Assembly (NCBI GenBank): GCA_050273025.1
Contig: CP158635.1
Coordinates: 6,510,001-6,574,000 of the forward strand
DNA: 64,000 bases
Source of the DNA: Cenococcum geophilum
Lineage: Eukaryota
Reading direction: 5' to 3'
Shown here: positions 28,001-64,000 of the stretch, piece after piece
How the letters are laid out: every line of letters begins with the position of its first letter
How positions within the stretch are numbered: position 1 is the stretch's first letter
Notes under the pieces: model-generated
The model's database searches: none
Seen by the model: only the letters and a program-made list of their open reading frames with translations
Told to the model about the DNA's origin: nothing
Program-made: the position numbers and the translations under genes

Positions 28001-29249
28001 CTTCTTTCTTAAGCTTAGCTCCAGCCTTAGTTTAATTAGGCTTCTATAGTATTCTTATCTTATTTTAAAAGTTTTAAATTTTACTTATCTTATCTTAAGA
28101 GTCTTATACCTTTAGGAAACTTCGTCCTAAGCTTATTTATATATTACTAAACTAAGCCGTTACTCTGCTCTATTAGTTATCGTCTATTATAGGTTCTTAA
28201 GCGTATCTTATTCTGTTTTAGGAATCTTAAGCGTCTTTTATTTCTTCCTAAGAATCTTAAGCTTTTAGCCTTTTGCCTTTATTAAGTGCCAAAGTAGTTT
28301 ACTGTTTTACTTCTCTTATATCTTATAAAGCGATAGATATTATATCTAGTGGGGTCTTAATCCCTACTAACGTTCCCTATTTTATAGTGGAATTATCTTT
28401 TACCTCTTTTATAACATCTCTAAGGTCTATATACTTCTAGCAAGCTTCTTTTATTACCTTATTATTATTAAATACTTCGCCTATATTAAATTTATTATCC
28501 TTAATATCCAATCTACGAGATAGTTTATTAGTTCCTCTAAACTTTAATAATTTTAGCTCTTATAGCTAATAGCTTACACTATACTTAGCGTCCTTATAAA
28601 TTTAGTATACGTTATTATAACAAAACGCAAAACTTCTAATTAAACACTCTTTTGTTCCTTATAGTATACTATTATCCCTTTATATATATATATCTTCTAC
28701 TAGTCTCGTTTCTTTTACTATATAGTAACTCTAACTACTTCTATAGTTTTTAATGTAATAACCTTATTTTCCGTAATTTATATAAGCTCCTTTTTTAAAC
28801 CATTTTTCTTACTATAGAGTTCGCCTAAACGTCTTCTGCTACTAAGATCCCTAGTTTAGCCTCTACTTCTTAGACCTTTAATTACTTAATCCTTATCCTC
28901 TAGGTTTTTATAGTTGTTTATTTTATTTTTGTTTTCTTTAGTACTACTTAGGTCTATTAGCTCTACGCTATACTATAGTTTCTAACTTTAACTTTATTAT
29001 TATATGCCTTGCGCCTTATATAACTGTAGAACTCTATCCTAACTTTTCTTAGTCTGCTCTCTTTAGTAGATCCTACTATTAATCTTAATTACTTAATTAA
29101 TTAAATCCTAAGAGTATCCGTATCTTTTATTAGAATAATTATATCCTAGACTTTTACTTTAAGTCCTTGCTTATACTATACTATAAGCGCCTTATTATTC
29201 TATTTAACTTATATTACTAATATTTAAAACTATATTATGTATTTAATTA

Positions 29250-30236
29250 GTAGTAACTCTTTGATTAACGTCTGATACGGATACTACTGGCCCACGCGGA
29301 CACTCCACACAGGGGAAAACTTGTGTATTTACAGGAAGAAAACCCCTGCAGTTGGGGGAGGAAAAACCCCGATTTGCCATGTTTGCACGTAGCAGCGGCC
29401 CTACAGGCCTATAGCACGTCCTCCTCCTTAGATGTTTTGAACTCCTTGGGAACCACTGCTTCCTTCTCTTCAGCTTATCCAAAGCTGGGGTTCACTACGT
29501 CCCAACTAGGCCTTGCCGATTGATTGATTGCCGTGTGCTTATTGTCTCCTTTTTCTCCCATATCTTGACCGTCCCCTATATGCTATCTCTTGTTGACCAT
29601 TGCCATATACGCCTTGCCTCCCCCCCCCTAGAGCCATCGAAGGCGTAAGGGGGATTCATCCATTCTAACTACCGTAATACTGACAGCGGGATATATTGTA
29701 TTTGGGTATCTTTTATGCCTAGGCCCCAGCTAGGCCCTCTCTAAGGGTCACCACTCCGTCAAAAGGAGACAAGGAAAACCGTGGGTCGCAATCCAGGCTG
29801 CGGTAGTATTACGGCAGTAATAAAATGGCGAGTGACCGCATGCTCCGCGGGCGATCGCTCTGGGGGTTAAGAGGGGCCGTATATTTGCTCGCTACTCGTT
29901 TGTTCGCGCTCGTTCGTTCGTTAATGTAAGGTCGTCGATGCTTTCAATTAGGGGTCGGGGACGTTGGATTCTATCTTGTATCCGCGAGGATTACACAGGG
30001 TTGAATAGGAGCGTAGCAGTTGTCTACTATGAAGGGGGTAACCGTTAGTAGTGGTTTTCGAGATCTCACCATCCCATGTGAAAACTTTTCACTACCCCCC
30101 ACAACATTTCGACCACCACCACAACGACCTCCTACCCGCAGCTGTGCGACGTCTCTGCGTTGGCTCTGCTAAGTCCAAAGACCAGCAGGTTCGTAGGCCT
30201 CACCACGTACAGGTGCAGAGTCCGATTTCGAGGACC
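29250..30236 (-). mobile_element. Non-autonomous non-LTR retroposon (SINE/SIDE-like, 987 bp), copy 1, inserted in gag of A'
   Basis: 15-bp TSD TTATGTATTTAATTA (29235-29249 / 30237-30251) and a 3' tail ...gttactac on the minus strand. GC-richer than its flanks and homologous in opposite orientation to 62425-63435. Confidence 0.9.
30153..30236 (-). ncRNA. Predicted HDV-like self-cleaving ribozyme, copy 1
   Basis: Minus strand: P1 GGTCCTC/GAGGCCT (G1-U wobble, one mismatch), P2 CTCTGC/GCAGAG, P3 ACC/GGT with L3 TGTACGT, P1.1 GT/AC, P4 CTGCTGGTC/GACTTAGCAG, J4/2 AGCCAAC. Confidence 0.8.
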
Positions 30237-30824
30237 TTATGTATTTAATTACTAAGGTTCTTTATACTAGGTTTTAAAGTTTTTATTCTACTATAGTAGA
30301 TACCTCTAGGTCTCTAAATATCTGCGTTAAGCGTTCTATAAACCCGCTCTAACTTAAGAATATATATTATACCTCCTGGTTAGTAATTGGTATACTATAT
30401 TTCTATACCTCTATAAGATAAGGCTTAAACTACTTAAGCGCTCTTCCTATTAAGAATAATCTTATATAAGCGACTTAATCTATAGGCGTTTCTAGTTTAA
30501 CTCCTTTCTATATAACCTTAAAGTGCATTTATATAAGGAATCCTTTAAGTTTTAACTTCTCCCCTAAGAATCGCTTAATTAAGGGTAACTTAACCTTAGC
30601 TGCTCCGATTCTATTAATCCTCTCTTTAAATATCCTATTATTGTCTATTAATTAATTAACTATTTCCTGTAGCTGTCCAACGGTAACTAGCTAAGAGTTA
30701 GTATCTGTTATACTAGTGTCGTTACCTAATCCCGATATAGTCGCTACCATTAATACTATTATGGCTACTACTTTTAGTAGCATATTATTTAACTTTATTA
30801 ATACTATAACTTTAGTAGTAAATA

Positions 30825-56370: not shown

Positions 56371-59300
56371 TGTTACGTGGGAAACTATATTAGGAAATAG
56401 AGGCTTCCTTTACGGGCAAGGCGCCCTTACTTATTAACCCCGGCCAAGCCAAGACTGCCCCTTAACCTCAACCATAAAAGGCCATTTCTCTCGCTGCTTT
56501 TCCTCTCATCCTCTATCTTTCCTTTCTCCTAACGCTGCGCCTCCTCCTCTTCTTACTGCTAGTCCCTAGCATAGTTACATTAAGGCATTTCTGCCGTCCC
56601 TTTAGCGCTAATACGTATGCAAGTTTAGCCCGCTTATTACTTTATTCCCCTATATCTTAGACTAATAATTAATATAGTTAACTACGGCCTTTTCAATAGG
56701 CGAGTCTCTATTTTACGGTAATATATAAATAGTCTTAGCCTTCTCTTCTAATTCCCGCCTCTGGAGCTAATAGCTTTAATTTTTATTAAGCTCTTTTAGC
56801 GCCGCCTCTATCCGCTAAGCGCGTCCATATCCTTACAATTCTATTCTCTCTTTTATATACACCCTCTCTCCTTTTACCTTTTAGATAGCGCTAGTCCGCA
56901 ACCGTCCCATAGAAAGGGGGTTAGGGAAATTCCGCAGTTACTAGCCGCGTTAGCACTATTATCTTATTTAACTCTACTATATATCTCCTTCTAAGATAGG
57001 GAGGGATAGGCGTGCTATATCTGCCCCCTTAAGGGCTTAAGCAAGCTTACGTCGCACTTATTTTAGCTAACCTACGCGCTATTTTCTTACCTAGGATATA
57101 CTATTAGTTAGACGGCCCGCTTTAGCGTTTACTAATAGCTAAAGCCACCTATATTACGGCTGGTATACCTACTAGGCTACCTAGCAGAAAAGTAGCTAGA
57201 CGTTATTAATTTAAGCAACTACCCTATACGGGGCTGTGTTAGGTATTATTTAAACGGATATTACACGGAGTGTCGCCTAGGTGGCTATATATGCCTACCT
57301 AGCGGTATAGTTATATTGCCACGGATGTTTTAGAAACACCGTTTAATCTACTAGTTTAGGGCTAAAGGGCTATTAGCTCTACCTAACTGCTTAACAGTAA
57401 AGTGGTAAAGGATTAACAATCCAGCCTTCTAAGCTATAGGGCTATAGTAGGAACCACCTAGATTAAAATTAGAAGGTTATAGCTTTTGGGCGTATAATAG
57501 ATCTACGGCACTGCGGCATAACTATAAAGGAATCTCTAATACTAGCTAGCTATATTAGAAGGGTTAGTATTATATAGCACCTTATATAGTACTCTATATA
57601 GTCCTTTACCTAGCGCATTTATATATCTATATATAATTACCGTACAAGTAGCAAGTATATCCGTTACTAGGCGGCTAGTATTAGAAAACCCTACCCGCTA
57701 CTAATAATAACACTACCTCCTTCCGTTATAGATAGCTTGTAACGTATACGTATAAGTAGGGCTTTATATCCTATTAATATAAGCGGCGTAGAAGATTAGC
57801 TAGATTAGCATTATTAGGAAGTAAATAGATATATTAGCACTGCCCTTTACTAAGGAATAAGGGTGGAGAATTTAAGCCACTAACCTCCTAATAAGGGGCT
57901 AGATGCGATAGCTATGTTAGAGCTAAATATACTAGCTTAGACGGGCAGATATAGTTTAATCGCAATTTACTAAGGGTGTTAATTAGGTGCTAGGAATTTA
58001 AGCCCTTATAAACCTTTATACCCTATAAACGGCAATTAACCCTAGTTTATGCCGGAGGCGCACGTATTAAATACTTTAATTTAATAAGAAACTTAGGCGA
58101 GGGGTAAAGGGTAAGGGGCAATAGGCGAGTGCTAGTGGCGAAGAGAGGACTAACGCGCACTTAAAAAGACCTTTAATTCCCCCTTAAAGCTTTTAAAAGC
58201 TATAAAATAATAGCAACTCTAATAATAATAACGTTAGTACTACCTTAGTCTTTATTTCGTATTCCTTTTAAAATTTCGCTTAATAAGAACAATTTCTACA
58301 CTAGTCCCCCTAGAAAATTAATAGCTTCGTCTTAGCACTATGCAATTACAGCCCCTAAAAAAAGCGCGAGTAGTAAACCTAAAAGGAGGAGCAGGGGAGT
58401 ACCTCTTTTCCCCCTAAAAAGTTAAGAAGTATTATAAGCTTAAGTACTTAACGGCATGTTATTCCACCTAGGGCCTTAATTTAGATATTCCGTCTAATAA
58501 AGCGCCTATAGACCCTATTTATAATTACAAAAAAGCTAATAATAAGTATTATAAGGATGATAAGGATAACGAGGATAACAAGGAAGATTTCTATAGGGAT
58601 AGAAATAACAGTTAAGTCTCTAGAGGAAGTAATTAAGGTAATTATCCTAGTAATTACCCTACTACTCTCCCTCTTTCCCTAGCAGTTTTAAATATGTAGT
58701 TTTAACGACTAGTAGTAAATCTAATAGTTATTAAAGACGATATAGCTAATCTAGACTCGGAAACTAAGGGCGATAAAGCTAGTAATACTAATAATAAAGC
58801 TAACGAAGCCGATAATTAACTAATACCTTGTAGATTAGGTATATGCTTCCCCTTTTAATTTATAATAGTATTATTTAACAATTAGTAGATAACGGGAATA
58901 ACGGCAGTAGTAAGGGTAATAAAAATAATAAAGAGCTACCTTCGTTAGAAGCGCTAGAAGAGGAGGTACGCGTACCTACGCATGATTATACTATACCCTT
59001 AACGCTAGACGGCAATTAAACAGATAATTTAACTAAAGGGCGTTGTATTAAAACTGCTCCGCAGTTTAGGCAAAAGCTTAGGACATTAGTGGCTGCTAGT
59101 TAAGAGTCTTTAGGAGCTAAAAAGTTAAAGAAGCGGAGGTCTAATCAGCTTAATTAACTAGGTAGCATTAATTATATCTCTAATACTTCTATTAGTAAGA
59201 GTAGCAAGAGCGTATAACCTAGGAAGTAATAAAGGTTACCTACTTTTTAGAGGACTACGCCTTCTAGCTTTCTTACCCTTAGCCTTAATAACGGTAATAG

Positions 59301-59933
59301 TATTAAGGAGCGAGCGGTCTCTACTACGCGGCCTACTAGCCCCTCCCCCTGGCACTATATATCTCCTTATAATACTAAACCACCAGAATATAGGGCTAAT
59401 AATAGTCGTAATTATATTCTAGATAATCTTATAAATGGCTTAACTAAAGAAAGTAATAATAAGGATAATAAGAACGTTACGGATAAAGGCAAGGCCGGGA
59501 ACTACGGTAACGGAAGTAATGACGGTAATAATATAGATAATGACAACTCTAGGGACGGTAATAGTAGTAGTAGCAATGAGGATAATAAGGCCTATAGGTG
59601 TATAGGGCAATAAGGATTACTAACCCCTATTACTAGTTAATTAAAGGTAAAGCGTGCTGCAAAGTATTATTTTTAACGGTCTTACTATTCCCCTTTAATT
59701 TTATCCACATATGCGTCTAACTAAAGCACTACGCTTACTAGTAATTATTGTAAGTAGATTATATCCCCTATATATAATCGCCTCCGTACCAAAAAACTGC
59801 TACTAAGCGCCGCCTCTAGCTCTAACTCTAATAAAGCAATACTAGGAGCCGCCTTAAATACTAATTTAGAAGAAATTTTAATCTAAACAGCTTTTAGGCG
59901 CTAGAAAGACGGGTTATATATTATTAGCGACTC
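56371..59933 (+). mobile_element. Possible LTR element or large TE relic with unidentified Cys-rich and acidic ORF remnants
   Basis: LTR-like segment 56371-56579 (tgttac...gttaca, TATA-like cataaaa, pyrimidine tract). Downstream RIPped coding-like sequence has a Cys cluster at ~57235-57290 and D/E-rich tracts at ~58550 and ~59450-59590. No second LTR in the window. Confidence 0.4.
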
Positions 59934-62424
59934 TGTTAATTGAGATATAAGTACGGTAAAAGGGTCGCGCAAGCCTGGACGATTAGATTGTCTATAAACG
60001 AGAATCTAAAGCTAGGGAAAGGAAAGGAGAAGAAGAGCAGCGCCGTTCGATGTTTTATAAGATCTTCGCGTCACGTGACCGTAATATGCGGCAATCTGTG
60101 GCAACTTGCCGGTGCGTAGTTCTGCTAAGTTCTGCTAGTGCCGTAACATTACCCCCCCCTCCAAAAAAGCCTGCCCTTAGGCTTTGCCGCTAAAAGTCTT
60201 AGTAAGAGAATCTAACTAATTAAATAACTTTAACCGCCGGTTAAAGTTCCTAGATATCTTAACACCTTATATAACTAAGAAATTTCTAGGGCATTTTTAT
60301 CCTTATATTCTTCTAGTAGCTTATTATCTTTATTATACTAGCACTCTATCTACTTATCTAGGTACTTTAGCGGTCCGGGTTTATTAGGGTAACGGCTATA
60401 AAACTCTTAAAGCTTATAGGGGCTACCTATAAAGTTCTATATAGGGTACTAAGTGGGGTCTAGGTTATATCCTTTCTAACTAATATAATACTTTAACGTT
60501 CCCTTTACAAGTTTACAAGCCAGTATTTCTTTAATTTCCCATTTATTATTGTCGTTAACTTAAATTAGCAAGGGAGGTTCATTCTTTTATCTAGGTAGTA
60601 GGTTATTTATAGCTTTCTATAGCTTATCCAGTAAGAAGATAAAGTGAACTTTAATTAAGTCTGGGAGCTTAACCTTGTACGAGTTACCTACTTTATTAAG
60701 AATCTTATATAGTCCTGCCATCTTATAGTCTAGCTTACGGCTAGGCCGTTCTATCTTCTAGTTCTTTATTGTAACCTAGACTATATCGCCTATAGTAAAG
60801 TTAGGCTCGCGCCTATACTTATTCACCTGCTATTCCATTAATTTTTAAGCCTTTTTTAGGTTTATATGGGCTACTTTCTAGGCTTCTTCTAAGCGCTTAG
60901 CGTACTGCTAGGCTTCCTTATAAGATAGTTTTTCGCGTACAGTCTAGGGCCCTTCTAGTCTATCCCAGTTAAAGCTTATATAGGGTAGGTAACCCATTTC
61001 TAGTTAAATAGGGGCAAATCCGGTAGAGTCGTGGGGTAGGGTAGCTTAGGCGTAGTCTATTAAGGGCAATAGTTTAGCCTAATTATCCTAGAAGTAGTTA
61101 ATAAAAGGCCAGAGTCTCTAGTCTAAGTATTAATTTATAATCTCTATTTAACTATTTATCTGGGGGTAATATACTATAGAAAGCTTTAGCTTAATACCTA
61201 GGATCCGGGTGAACTTATTCTAAAAGGCTAATATAAACTGCGGCCTGTAGTCGGATATAATAGTATCTAATAGTCCGTAAATTTGGTAGACGTAGTGGAT
61301 ATACAGTCGGGCTGCCTCTTTAGTATTAATATTCTTATAATAGGGAATTAAGAACGGGCGCTTGCCGAAGCGGTTAACTAGGATTATAACTATATTATAT
61401 CCGTTATGGTCTAGAGGTAGCTTATAAAAGTCTATAGAGATATATTACCAGGGGCGGTCGGGTATTAAAAGGGGTTTTAATAATCCTAGGGTTTTATCTT
61501 ATAGAATTATAGACCTACAGCAGTTATTATAGTTCTGTATATAGCAATTAATATCTATAATTATTTCGGGCTAGTAATAGCGGTTGCTAATAATCCTACG
61601 GGTCTTATTTTTTCTAGGGTGGGCCGTAGAGACCTGGGTATGTGCTTTGGTAATAAGCCGAGTCTATAAGTTCTGTTCCTCTACTACCACTAGCCGTTTA
61701 CGGTGCTTAAGTAGTCCACTTTTAAGGGACTATAGGCTAGAAACGTTCTTTGCCTTTTCGCGGTACTCCTGTAGAGAAGGGGCCGTACGGTTTGCCTGCA
61801 GTAGTTTATTAATAAGGTCTAGTTCTATAGAGTTAATAGGGCATATCTCGGCATCTAAAGAGTCTATATTTAGTTCTGCCCGTATCTAGGAGTTAAGGTG
61901 CTTTAGTTGTAGTAGCGTCTAGGTCCATAATGAGATCTTTATAGCCGTATAGTTACCTAGGTCTTATTTACGTCTAGTAAGAGCATCCGCATAGTTTATA
62001 GCGCCTAGTCTATATATAATTAAGAAGTTAAACTAAGATAGGATATCCGCCTAGCGTGCCTGCCGGGCCGTAAGGGCCTTAGTTATTATAAAGTATTTTA
62101 GGGCCTTATAATCTAACACTACCTTAATAGGTTTAGGGGTCCCCTCTAGCTGTACACGCCAGTGCTAAAAGCTAGAGATAGTAGCCAGTATTTCTTTGTT
62201 ATAGATATAGTAGTTTAGTTTAGCATCTATTATAGTCTTTAAATAGTATATAATAGGGTGCCATTCTCCATCCAGTTGCTTTTAGGAAAAAATACCGGCT
62301 ATTGCGCCGTTTAAGGCATTAGTTTCTAGTATTAAGGGCCGTTCTGGGTTAAAGTGGGTAAGTAAGGGGGCTGACACTAGCCGTTTTTTAAGCTTATTAA
62401 AGGCCTGTATATATATGGCGTTAA

Positions 62425-62510
62425 GGCCGTCGAAATCGGACTCTGCACCTATATGTAGTGACGGCTACGAACCTAGGTCTTCGAAGTTCAGACTTAGAGC
62501 CAACGCAGAG
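62425..62510 (+). ncRNA. Predicted HDV-like self-cleaving ribozyme, copy 2
   Basis: P1 GGCCGTC/GACGGCT (7 bp with G1-U), P2 CTCTGC/GCAGAG, P3/L3 ACC-TATATGT-AGT (RIP variant of ACC-TGTACGT-GGT), P4 CTAGGTCT/AGACTTAG, J4/2 AGCCAAC. Confidence 0.8.
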
Positions 62511-63435
62511 ACGTTGTACAGCGCGTTCTGGTGGGCCTGGTGGTGGTTATATACGTCGTGGGGCGTAGTAAAAAGTTTTTACATGGGATGGTGAGATCTC
62601 GAAAACCACTATAGACGGTACCCCTTTATAATATAGCTATTACTATTCCCCTACTAAGCACCTATACGATCTAACATAGATGTATAGCATTTAATAGCAT
62701 CTCCTAACCCCTAATAGAAAGTATTAATAACCTTTTATATTAACGAATAAGCGAATATAAACAAGTAATAAGTAAATATACGGCCCTTCCTAACCCCTAG
62801 GGTGATCGCCCGCAGAGCATACGATCACTTACTATTAACTATTAAATACTACCTAGCAGCCTGGATAACACCGTGCGGTTTTCCTATCTCCTCTTAAGGA
62901 GTGGTAACCCTTAGCGAGGGCCTAGCAACTAGGGCCTAGGTGTAAAAGATACCTAGGTATATATATATGTCCCGCTCGCCTTTTAGTATAGTAGTAGTTT
63001 ATAGATAAATCCCCCTTACGCCTTTAATAGGCCCTAGGGGGGGGAAGGCATGGCGTATATAGTAATGGTTAAACAAGAGATAGTATATAGGGGATGGCTA
63101 AGATATAGGAAATAACAGTATAGTAATTAATTGGCAAGGCCTAGCTGGGACGTAGTAAACCCTAGCTAGAATAAGCTAGAGAAGGAAGTAGTGGTTCCTA
63201 AGGAGTTCAAATATCTAAGGAGGACAGAATATAGCCGTAGGCTTATAGGGCCGCTGCTATGGACAAACATGGCAAACTGGGGTTTTTTATCCTACTAAGG
63301 TGGCTTATAGGGTTTTTCCTCCCCCAACTATAGGGTTTTTCTTCCTGTAAATTATAAGTTTTTCCCCTATAACGGAGTAGTCTACGTGGGCCGCGTAGGA
63401 TCCGTATTAGATGTTAAGTAATGAAATATTATTAT
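62425..63435 (+). mobile_element. Non-autonomous non-LTR retroposon (SINE/SIDE-like, 1011 bp), copy 2, inserted in pol of Gypsy E
   Basis: 15-bp TSD TATATATGGCGTTAA (62410-62424 / 63436-63450) and a (TAT)n tail, probably RIPped (TAC)n. Homologous to 29250-30236. Confidence 0.9.
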
Positions 63436-64000
63436 TATATATGGCGTTAAAGTAGAAGGGCTAGTCTTTCCTAGTAAGGCGGTTAAGAGGCTAGGCGATT
63501 CTGCTATAGTTCTTAATAAAGTGTTAGTAGAAGCTACAGAAACCTAAAAATAATTATACCCCCTTTATAGTCCGTGGGGGCGTCTACTGGTTAATTGCGG
63601 CCGTTTTCTTTGGGTTGGCCTTAATTCTGTTTATGCTAATAATAAAACCTAAGTACTTTATATGCTTAATACTAAATTCTAACTTCTTAATATTGGCCTG
63701 GAGGCTAGCTTCGCGGAGCCGTTATAGGACTTTATAGACGTGCTCCTCGTATTCTAGTTTGTTCTCTAAGTATATTATAATATTATCTAGATAGGCCGTA
63801 TAGAAGTCGTTAAGGTAGTTAAAGAGTATATCGTTTAATTACCGCTAGTACGTAGCTGGTCCGTTAGTTAGTCTAAAAGGAAGTACCTTATATTTATACG
63901 TTCTGTAATAGGTCTAAAATATAGTAAAATCCTTAGACCTGGGGTTTATCCTAATTTGGTAAAAGGCCTGGCGGATATTAAGCTTAGTAAAAACCTTAGC

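Follow-up and report, generated by a model that had tools for sequence, protein, structure and literature searches.

Two copies of a retroposon in the window

The 64,000-nucleotide stretch of Cenococcum geophilum DNA analyzed here (contig CP158635.1 of assembly GCA_050273025.1, positions 6,510,001 to 6,574,000 of the forward strand; hereafter ‘the window’) harbors two copies of a non-coding element whose first bases resemble, in the order of their helices and junctions, the self-cleaving ribozyme of hepatitis delta virus (HDV). Considered together with relatives gathered from elsewhere, these copies very likely represent a family of ~1 kb non-coding retroposons, of the type that lacks long terminal repeats (non-LTR), in a filamentous fungus with active repeat-induced point mutation (RIP), and the first ~86 nucleotides of that family would correspond to an HDV-like ribozyme.

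Copy 2, which spans positions 62425–63435 of the plus strand (1011 bp), contains no open reading frame (ORF) and is bounded by exact 15-bp target-site duplications (TSDs). An earlier reading, made from the letters alone (‘the sequence-only reading’), had placed a 15-bp TSD immediately ahead of the first base of the element, G1, at 62425, and both were borne out when positions 62200–64000 were read again. The single other match found by BLAST within the window is copy 1, which is 72.7% identical to copy 2 over its full length. The longest stop-to-stop ORF in copy 1 amounts to at most 84 amino acids; the 64-kb window as a whole contains one stop-to-stop ORF of at least 110 amino acids (59251–59613, outside copy 2) and no tRNA genes. 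The elements and their borders are arranged as follows:

29235–29249, no strand: TSD on the 3′ side of copy 1, second occurrence of TAATTAAATACATAA
29250–30236, minus strand: retroposon copy 1, with little RIP, 987 bp, GC content 51%, G1 at 30236 and end at 29250
30153–30236, minus strand: head of copy 1, resembling a ribozyme, in which P1 is GGTCCTC/GAGGCCT and position 3 of P1 is a T.C mismatch
30237–30251, no strand: TSD on the 5′ side of copy 1, TAATTAAATACATAA as read on the minus strand
62410–62424, no strand: left TSD of copy 2, TATATATGGCGTTAA, an exact 15-bp match to 63436–63450
62425–63435, plus strand: retroposon copy 2, RIP-mutated, 1011 bp between its TSDs, GC content 42%
63436–63450, no strand: right TSD of copy 2, second occurrence of TATATATGGCGTTAA

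The window around them (1–64000) is a RIP-degraded ‘repeat desert’, with a GC content of 27–41%.

The head of the element

The initial 86 nucleotides of copy 2 can be drawn as an HDV-like double pseudoknot, with helices P1, P2, P3 (closed by loop L3), P1.1 and P4, and with the characteristic J4/2 junction. Its parts, all on the plus strand, are:

62425–62431, plus strand: 5′ strand of P1, GGCCGTC, partner of 62460–62466; G1 would be the first base of the cleavage product
62432–62440, plus strand: J1/2, GAAATCGGA, 9 nt (subfamily variant GAAAACGGA)
62441–62446, plus strand: 5′ strand of P2, CTCTGC, partner of 62505–62510
62447–62449, plus strand: 5′ strand of P3, ACC, partner of AGT at 62457–62459
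62450–62456, plus strand: L3, TATATGT, 7 nt; the family consensus is TGTACGT, with G>A at 62451 and C>T at 62454
62457–62459, plus strand: 3′ strand of P3, AGT; the consensus is GGT, with G>A at 62457
62460–62466, plus strand: 3′ strand of P1, GACGGCT, closing pair G1.U
62467–62472, plus strand: J1/4, ACGAAC, whose AC lies opposite L3 positions 2–3 in P1.1
62473–62497, plus strand: P4 hairpin, CTAGGTCT-TCGAAGTTC-AGACTTAG, 8 bp, -6.5 kcal/mol
62498–62504, plus strand: J4/2, AG-CCAAC, with a candidate catalytic C at 62500
62505–62510, plus strand: 3′ strand of P2, GCAGAG, partner of 62441–62446

The assignments of P1, P2, P3, a 7-nt L3, P4 and J4/2 in the sequence-only reading agree with these coordinates and letters. 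The same reading had pointed to an exchange at position 5 of P1 (G-C in copy 2, C-G in copy 1) and to P4 hairpins that differ in sequence between the copies and still pair; the first is real, and the second holds as well. The T.C mismatch at P1 position 3 of copy 1 was absent from that account. The CCAAC of J4/2 is present in both copies. When the two heads were folded as nested structures, their minimum free energy (MFE) z-scores were -0.18 and -0.80, values that are uninformative for a pseudoknot, and P2 and P4 appeared in both folds.

The family and its 5′ boundary

Relatives were sought by scanning metagenome contigs with a pattern that combined part of the P2–P3 strand, a gap of 30–60 nt, and J4/2 together with the 3′ strand of P2. 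By this means at least 122 family copies were recovered from the metagenome scan, and the same pattern found one more (L123) in a collection of prokaryote genomes, so that the gathering of genomic copies that the sequence-only reading had proposed yielded at least 123 further ones. Because the pattern fixed P2 and J4/2, these two segments are invariant by selection and provide no independent evidence. All family counts given below refer to the matches listed from the metagenome scan, plus L123 and the two window copies. An alignment of the heads (A1) comprises 123 sequences in 122 distinct rows, two shortened loci having been left out of 125. A relaxed version of the head pattern, applied to viral contigs, produced no matches.

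The 5′ boundary of the family is exact. In A1 the columns from -5 to -1 show no consensus and have the A/T-rich composition of flanking DNA, and position +1 is G in 119 of the 123 heads (A in three, T in one). Among the 63 full-length loci, defined by at least 900 nt of sequence downstream, an exact TSD abuts G1 in 47 and recurs ~1 kb further on, after the tail. These TSDs range from 9 to 18 bp, and their two commonest lengths are 15 bp, seen in 17 loci, and 14 bp, seen in 16; two 9-bp examples may be due to chance, one of which (L069) is not preceded by a tail. The other 16 full-length loci yielded no exact repeat that reached 7 nt. Full-length copies thus begin at G1 and not upstream of it, an outcome on which the sequence-only reading had staked its interpretation.

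Two further observations concern this boundary. Three copies (L098, L109 and L122) carry a TT or CT insertion in the 3′ strand of P1 (GAC-TT-GGCCT), and all three possess an extra G at -1, with which P1 would grow to 8 bp and contain a bulge of 2 nt. By eye, most TSDs open with TA (TATAT, TAAT, TAAAT) directly after a tail that ends in TAC or TA, which suggests either that nicks are made preferentially at TA-rich sites or that the (TAC)n tail shares microhomology with the target.

Pairing and covariation across the family

The family follows the HDV fold in the order of its parts (P1-P2-P3-L3-P3′-P1′-J1/4-P4-J4/2-P2′), with a P1 of 7 bp and a P3 of 3 bp. At the level of sequence, P1 is closed by a G1.U pair of the HDV type with no requirement for particular upstream bases, and a two-pair P1.1 can form between L3 positions 2–3 and the first two bases of J1/4. 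Across the 122 distinct rows, standard pairs occupy 96.7% of the 2196 cells that make up P1, P2, P3 and P1.1, as compared with 30–46% when the 3′ partners were slid by one to three columns. The observed pairing also exceeded a shuffle control (0 of 500 shuffles), a test that related sequences can pass without any structure.

Individual positions vary in instructive ways. The G1 pair is G.U in 118 of 122 rows, A-U in three (through G>A) and something else in one. Position 5 of P1 is G-C in 94 rows, C-G in 17 and G.U in five; the swap from G-C to C-G was not made by RIP, because transversions are needed on both sides, and it probably reflects a single event in the GGTCCTC/GAGGCCT subfamily. Position 3 of P1 is unpaired in 21 of 122 rows, namely the T.C of that subfamily (17 of 17 members, copy 1 included), the three insertion-bearing copies and L123, whose register is shifted in the alignment. 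The subfamily can also be drawn in another register, in which a U is bulged and G1 pairs with C; RIP does not explain its mismatch. In P3 the A-U and one C-G pair are present in all 122 rows, and the third pair (C-G in 113) is broken in nine by G>A, copy 2 among them. In P1.1 the U-A pair is kept in 121 rows and the G-C pair in 90 of 122, being broken in 26, mostly as A.C via G>A, again with copy 2 included.

The P4 hairpin occurs in 77 distinct variants of 14–30 nt, which were examined sequence by sequence. All but five of these variants (nine of 123 sequences, in which the stem has been RIPed) form a hairpin closed by CUG/CAG. With respect to the proposal in the sequence-only reading that copies should pair and covary, pairing is kept across the family, and covariation is limited but real.

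A divergent relative

The strongest evidence for covariation comes from L123, though it is one sequence. Its head (1487–1584) is unlike that of the main family in J1/2, P1, L3, J1/4 and the whole of P4, with the structure retained. P1 reads GGGCGAU/GUCGCCU, so that relative to the main family two pairs are altered on both sides and one has become U.G. L3 is UCCACGUC, and its CC faces a GG in J1/4 where the main family has GU facing AC; both pairs of P1.1 have therefore changed. P4 is a 30-nt hairpin of unrelated sequence (-16 kcal/mol).

L123 lies on a 3.6-kb contig labelled as a bacterial metagenome-assembled genome (MAG), where the head sits just downstream of the apparent 3′ end of a gene and of a T-rich stretch. 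In the 1.6 kb past the head there is no ORF longer than 111 amino acids, and the sequence closes with simple repeats rich in CAA/GAC; neither a TSD nor an end of the element was found within the contig. The contig is likely a eukaryotic contaminant of the bacterial bin.

Covariance models and descriptors

A comparison with Infernal models of HDV-like ribozymes had been suggested by the sequence-only reading, and its outcome favors that reading: models of the HDV family are the best of the weak matches and begin at G1, though every score falls below the gathering score of its model. L123 (1485–1584) aligns to the full length (1–89) of RF00094 (HDV_ribozyme) with 30.6 bits, corresponding to an E value of 0.25 in 9160 nt or 0.0036 in 131 nt. 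The alignment recovers the same P1, P3 and P4, and it places GGGAAC on GGGCAAC and GCCAA on GCuAA; the GCUAA of RF00094 is the C75 region that bears the catalytic C (in the numbering of the HDV crystal structure). When a main-family head (L017) was compared with 4227 Rfam families, RF02682 (HDV-F-prausnitzii; 13.8 bits, E 1.4) and RF01787 (drz-agam-1; 13.7 bits, E 1.5) were the top two of three weak matches, both of them full-length and both starting from G1. The head of copy 1 matched RF02682 with 10.5 bits (E 8.3) over exactly 30153–30236. At gathering thresholds, Rfam has no match in the entire window.

A descriptor of the fold was then specified strictly: a 7-bp P1 with G.U, a 6-bp P2, a 3-bp P3, an L3 of 6–9 nt, a 2-bp P1.1, a P4 of at least 4 bp, and C-N-A-A-N ahead of the 3′ strand of P2. 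It recognizes 56 of 125 heads and nothing elsewhere in 306,616 nt searched on both strands (613 kb). When one mismatch was allowed in P1, it recognized 73 heads and four other positions, all within 20 nt upstream of G1. By inspection, copy 1 fails the strict descriptor on its P1 mismatch and copy 2 on P3 and P1.1. (A first, looser HDV descriptor, which gave 38 matches, was too permissive and missed both window copies, and was replaced by the strict one.) A covariance model built from A1 (R1) finds only the two heads in the window, at 113 and 101 bits (101 for copy 1), with the next best match at 11.8, and over 80 loci it finds one head per locus. Because neither window copy passes the descriptors, the case for a ribozyme rests on the family and not on copy 2 alone.

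These results bear directly on the most skeptical interpretation, which is that the drawing is a chance resemblance in the conserved 5′ region of an ordinary retroposon. It could draw upon the failure of both window copies under the looser descriptor and, by inspection, under the strict one, upon the unremarkable z-scores of their nested folds, and upon the close relationship of the family members, through which high pairing is partly inherited. Set against this are the empty 613-kb background for a descriptor that recognizes 56 of 125 heads, the fall from 96.7% pairing to 30–46% in the slid controls, the pairing of L123 and of the P4 length variants through different sequence, and the fact that, of 4227 Rfam families, those of the HDV type give the best matches, which begin at G1. 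A chance resemblance is thus considered very improbable.

RIP damage in copy 2

Between copy 1 and copy 2 the changes comprise 59 C>T and 55 G>A, as opposed to 17 T>C and 18 A>G; this spectrum is a RIP signature. Relative to the family consensus, the third pair of P3 has been lost in copy 2 (C.A) by G>A at 62457, and P1.1 has been lost by G>A at 62451. The suggestion in the sequence-only reading that RIP-type changes had broken P3 and P1.1 in this copy therefore holds against the consensus, and the head of copy 2, as judged from its letters, is a dead, RIP-inactivated relic.

Element class, tail and modularity

The remainder of the element displays the traits of a non-LTR retroposon, including flanking TSDs of variable length and a simple-repeat tail that follows a conserved 3′ end. 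Units delimited by TSDs measure 981–1050 bp, and a unit of ~1 kb is found in most loci with enough DNA, a few loci being interrupted by foreign insertions. At the 3′ end of copy 2 two features can be distinguished:

63402–63425, plus strand: conserved 3′ motif, the RIPed form of CCGTATCAGACGTTAA..., kept in the family and common to L030
63426–63435, plus strand: 3′ tail ATATTATTAT, the RIPed form of the family (TAC)n tail

Un-RIPed copies possess a (TAC)2-5 tail after a conserved CCGTATCAGACGTTAATCAAAGA, and copy 1 ends in TTACTAC. The 3′ motif is presumed to be the recognition site of a partner reverse transcriptase. One locus provides a view of how such elements may be assembled: the 829-bp TSD-flanked unit of L030 (498–1326) carries the same head (its first ~130 nt are 84% identical) and, at its 3′ end, a similar stretch of 43 nt that closes in ATCAGACGTTAATCAA and is followed by (TAA)n, and otherwise has little in common with the main family. 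This arrangement suggests that head and tail are exchangeable modules.

The element appears to be non-autonomous, as judged from its absence of ORFs. A search for relatives of the tail (up to three mismatches) returned only the tail of copy 1 itself, that of copy 2 being too RIPed; a search with the P2 region, and a BLAST search with the element in the 306 kb formed by the window and 123 loci, returned known heads only. A literature search for fungal long interspersed nuclear elements (LINEs) with (TAC)n tails found nothing useful.

An entirely different class of repeat, such as a short interspersed nuclear element (SINE) transcribed by RNA polymerase III (Pol III) from a small-RNA head, a solo LTR, or a miniature inverted-repeat transposable element (MITE), would likewise be short, non-coding, abundant and flanked by direct repeats. 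The Pol III option is opposed by a tRNA scan and by Rfam searches (at gathering thresholds and at E values up to 10), which gave no tRNA, 5S or 7SL match and no Rfam small-RNA match, and by the five to eight T4–T6 runs on the sense strand of each copy. LTR and DNA elements have fixed short TSDs, in contrast to those observed here, which are mostly of 10–18 bp with modes of 14–15; the 3′ end is a (TAC)n tail, and the termini of the two window copies are not inverted repeats. Of the interpretations considered, this is the one to which we give least credence.

Two observations about the body of the element may also be recorded. When 46 full-length copies were compared in 50-nt bins, conservation was highest in the head (0.95, partly selected by the pattern) and at positions 351–400 (also 0.95), the latter being free of any selection by the search pattern. 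This block (29837–29886 in copy 1, minus strand) has an identity of 0.95, an identity by purine/pyrimidine class of 1.00 and no gaps, and it may act as a promoter inside the element or be bound by a protein. In another locus (L064) the copy is interrupted by foreign sequence ~130 nt in, and the region ~500–1180 downstream of G1 consists partly of long, degenerate tandem arrays of ~12–20 nt, of the AAACGCCTACA and AAGCTCTGC types.

Transcription of the family

RNA reads and contigs were placed on the region of copy 1 (29100–30400) at 85% likeness, where the flanks differ from those of the expressed copies. In a set of raw stranded RNA reads (X24), depth was zero over both flanks and rose to ~3100 inside the element, and first mates favored the plus over the minus strand by 10- to 60-fold in most bins and by ~1.4–4 at the 3′ end; given the usual library chemistry, this signal probably corresponds to RNA of the sense strand of the element. 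Because so few of these reads are nearly identical to copy 1 (122 of 12,449 at 99% likeness or more), the RNA originates mainly from other copies. Two sets of metatranscriptome contigs (X2 and X7) gave an element depth of 4e3–5e5 as compared with 3–32 in the flanks, and a DNA run (X1) showed no comparable excess over the element. The family is strongly transcribed.

The origin of this RNA is relevant to how the 5′ end is produced. The strand bias points to an origin from a promoter of the element itself, or to selective stability of processed sense RNA, at least as well as to read-through from outside. One contig in X2 (477 nt, depth 17, 21 differences) aligned as far as 30231, a position 5 nt from G1, and continued for ~125 letters beyond; it is probably a molecule from another copy that crosses G1, and at so low a depth it could be DNA carry-over.

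A proposed mechanism and its principal alternative

On present evidence the head of the family is likely to be a functional, self-cleaving HDV-like ribozyme, and we infer a catalytic step, a partner enzyme and a site of transcription start as follows. A transcript begun upstream, or at a promoter of the element, would fold into the nested double pseudoknot. The first C of J4/2 would then catalyze a cut 5′ of G1, and the RNA would start at G1 regardless of the flank. The conserved 3′ motif and the (TAC)n tail would be recognized by the reverse transcriptase of a partner LINE, and target-primed reverse transcription at TA-rich sites would generate the 14–15-bp TSDs and regenerate the ribozyme at a new 5′ end. 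Release of the element specifically from read-through transcripts, as the sequence-only reading had it, is one possible route; in computational terms the interpretation offered there is otherwise well supported.

In the principal alternative, transcription by RNA polymerase II (Pol II) starts at G1 under the control of a promoter that lies downstream, within the element, as in many LINEs, and it is this start that fixes the exact 5′ end. The head would then be a structured, non-cleaving leader, with a role for example in protein binding, in stability or akin to that of an internal ribosome entry site (IRES). Abundant, strand-biased RNA confined to the element fits a promoter of its own; every HDV score in Rfam lies below threshold; and the subfamily with a mismatch in P1 has been amplified with exact ends. 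The two explanations can also coexist, since a 77-nt segment of L1Tc is reported, in passages of PMC3383444, to act both as promoter and as ribozyme. A plain leader, however, has no need of a first helix at +1, nor does it account for a head in which all of the HDV junctions stand in order (G1.U, a 3-bp P3, an L3 of 7–8 nt, P1.1 at L3 positions 2–3), with GAAC in J1/4 and C-N-A-A in J4/2 also in place, and in which P1, P1.1 and P4 of L123 stay paired through changes in sequence. A leader that does not cleave is therefore regarded as unlikely, while being the most serious of the competing explanations.

Several findings weigh against self-cleavage by the head. The Rfam scores fall under the gathering values by a wide range (30.6 versus 50, 13.8 versus 44, 13.7 versus 37 and 10.5 versus 44), and copy 2 has no Rfam match at E values up to 10. 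The second of these can be put down to copy 2 being too RIPed for narrow models; and because the seed sets are narrow, sub-threshold scores lower the claim to membership in those particular Rfam families and not the claim about the fold. P2 and J4/2, having been set by the search pattern, are untouched by covariation, and most of the covariation that exists stems from few events, in a single subfamily and a single divergent head. The P1.1 of the main family consists of G-C and U-A, as opposed to two G-C pairs in HDV, and the GGTCCTC subfamily was amplified with exact 5′ ends despite its unexplained T.C mismatch in P1. With regard to the RNA, the strong strand bias differs from what random read-through would predict, and the reads that pile up at 30224 (367 of 1013 molecules) and at 30231 do so where copy 1 first mismatches other subfamilies, and these pile-ups may reflect clipping. 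Finally, the 306 kb of the window and 123 loci yielded no autonomous partner LINE that shares the head or the tail.

Relation to known systems

Non-LTR elements that begin with an HDV-like ribozyme have been documented in metazoans and trypanosomatids, according to passages of PMC6765202, PMC3414825, PMC3185411 and PMC3383444. In Drosophila, passages of PMC3414825 and PMC6765202 describe such a ribozyme at the 5′ end of R2 and of the R2-derived elements termed ‘SIDEs’, where, as in the fungal family, it forms the first sequence of the element and sets its 5′ end. A SIDE, as outlined in PMC3414825, consists of a 5′ ribozyme and a 3′ end that is recognized by the reverse transcriptase of a partner, with no ORF, an arrangement to which the head and tail shared by L030 and the main family bear a likeness. 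The differences lie in their targets and parentage: R2 and SIDEs, in the same passages, are site-specific in 28S rDNA and co-transcribed with rRNA, whereas the fungal elements are scattered through RIPed DNA of high AT content, where they occupy TA-rich targets and have 14–15-bp TSDs and a (TAC)n tail; and SIDEs of the R2 type derive from R2, whereas no parent element was found for the fungal family in 306 kb.

A second point of reference is provided by L1Tc and its non-autonomous relative NARTc in Trypanosoma cruzi, in which the ribozyme L1TcRz lies within Pr77 (passages of PMC3185411 and PMC3383444). There, too, an HDV-like ribozyme occupies the first ~77–86 nt of dispersed non-LTR elements, both autonomous and non-autonomous, as these passages describe; the host differs, being a trypanosomatid with polycistronic transcription, and the likeness to the fungal head is one of layout. 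A head that doubled as a promoter, in the manner of Pr77, would explain the abundant, strand-biased RNA. Passages of PMC6765202 extend the list to RTE, Baggins and other metazoan elements with HDV-like heads, and to LINEs and SINEs in diverse metazoans.

The ribozymes represented by RF00094, RF02682 and RF01787 have the same order of helices and the same junctions as the fungal head, from which they differ in that the fungal scores are sub-threshold, the P1.1 of the main family is G-C and U-A, and J1/2 is 9 nt long. The resemblance is closest between RF00094 and L123: their P3 and L3 (gCC-UCCuCGcU-GGc in RF00094, ACC-UCCACGUC-GGU in L123) are strikingly alike, and J1/4 (GGGCAAC and GGGAAC) and J4/2 (GCuAA and GCCAA) are similar. 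Among fungal repeats, the AfuSINEs (passages of PMC5063351) are also short, non-coding, TSD-flanked retroposons that are presumably mobilized by LINEs; they differ in having Pol III heads derived from small RNAs (tRNA or 5S), in contrast to the ~1 kb length and internal T runs of the present family.

The head is thus a probable fungal member of the known group of HDV-like retroelement heads. A full-text literature search found no fungal retroelement with an HDV-like ribozyme; subscription papers lay outside its scope, and an earlier report is possible. The passages available from a 2026 preprint on ribozyme screening mention two fungi and do not mention HDV-like retroposon heads, and those of PMC13725137 concern RNA viruses. 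We judge the odds to be even that ribozyme-terminated retroposons are seen here in a fungal lineage for the first time; such a lineage would be abundant, highly transcribed and modular (its head HDV-like, its body interchangeable, its tail conserved and accompanied by (TAC)n), with an unusual G-C/U-A P1.1, a tolerated mismatch in P1, a head that may double as a promoter or stability element, and a related head (L123) in a second organism.

Implications

If the interpretation is correct, HDV-like processing of retroelement 5′ ends would extend from animals and trypanosomatids to fungi. An active ribozyme would explain how a promoter-poor, non-coding fungal retroposon acquires an exact 5′ end, and it would offer to ribozyme biochemistry a natural variant, with a G-C/U-A P1.1 and a mismatched P1, accompanied by the natural series of point-mutated, dead copies that RIP supplies. 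For the annotation of fungal repeats, an active head of this type would furnish a diagnostic feature for a class of elements that is now likely filed among ‘unknown’ repeats.

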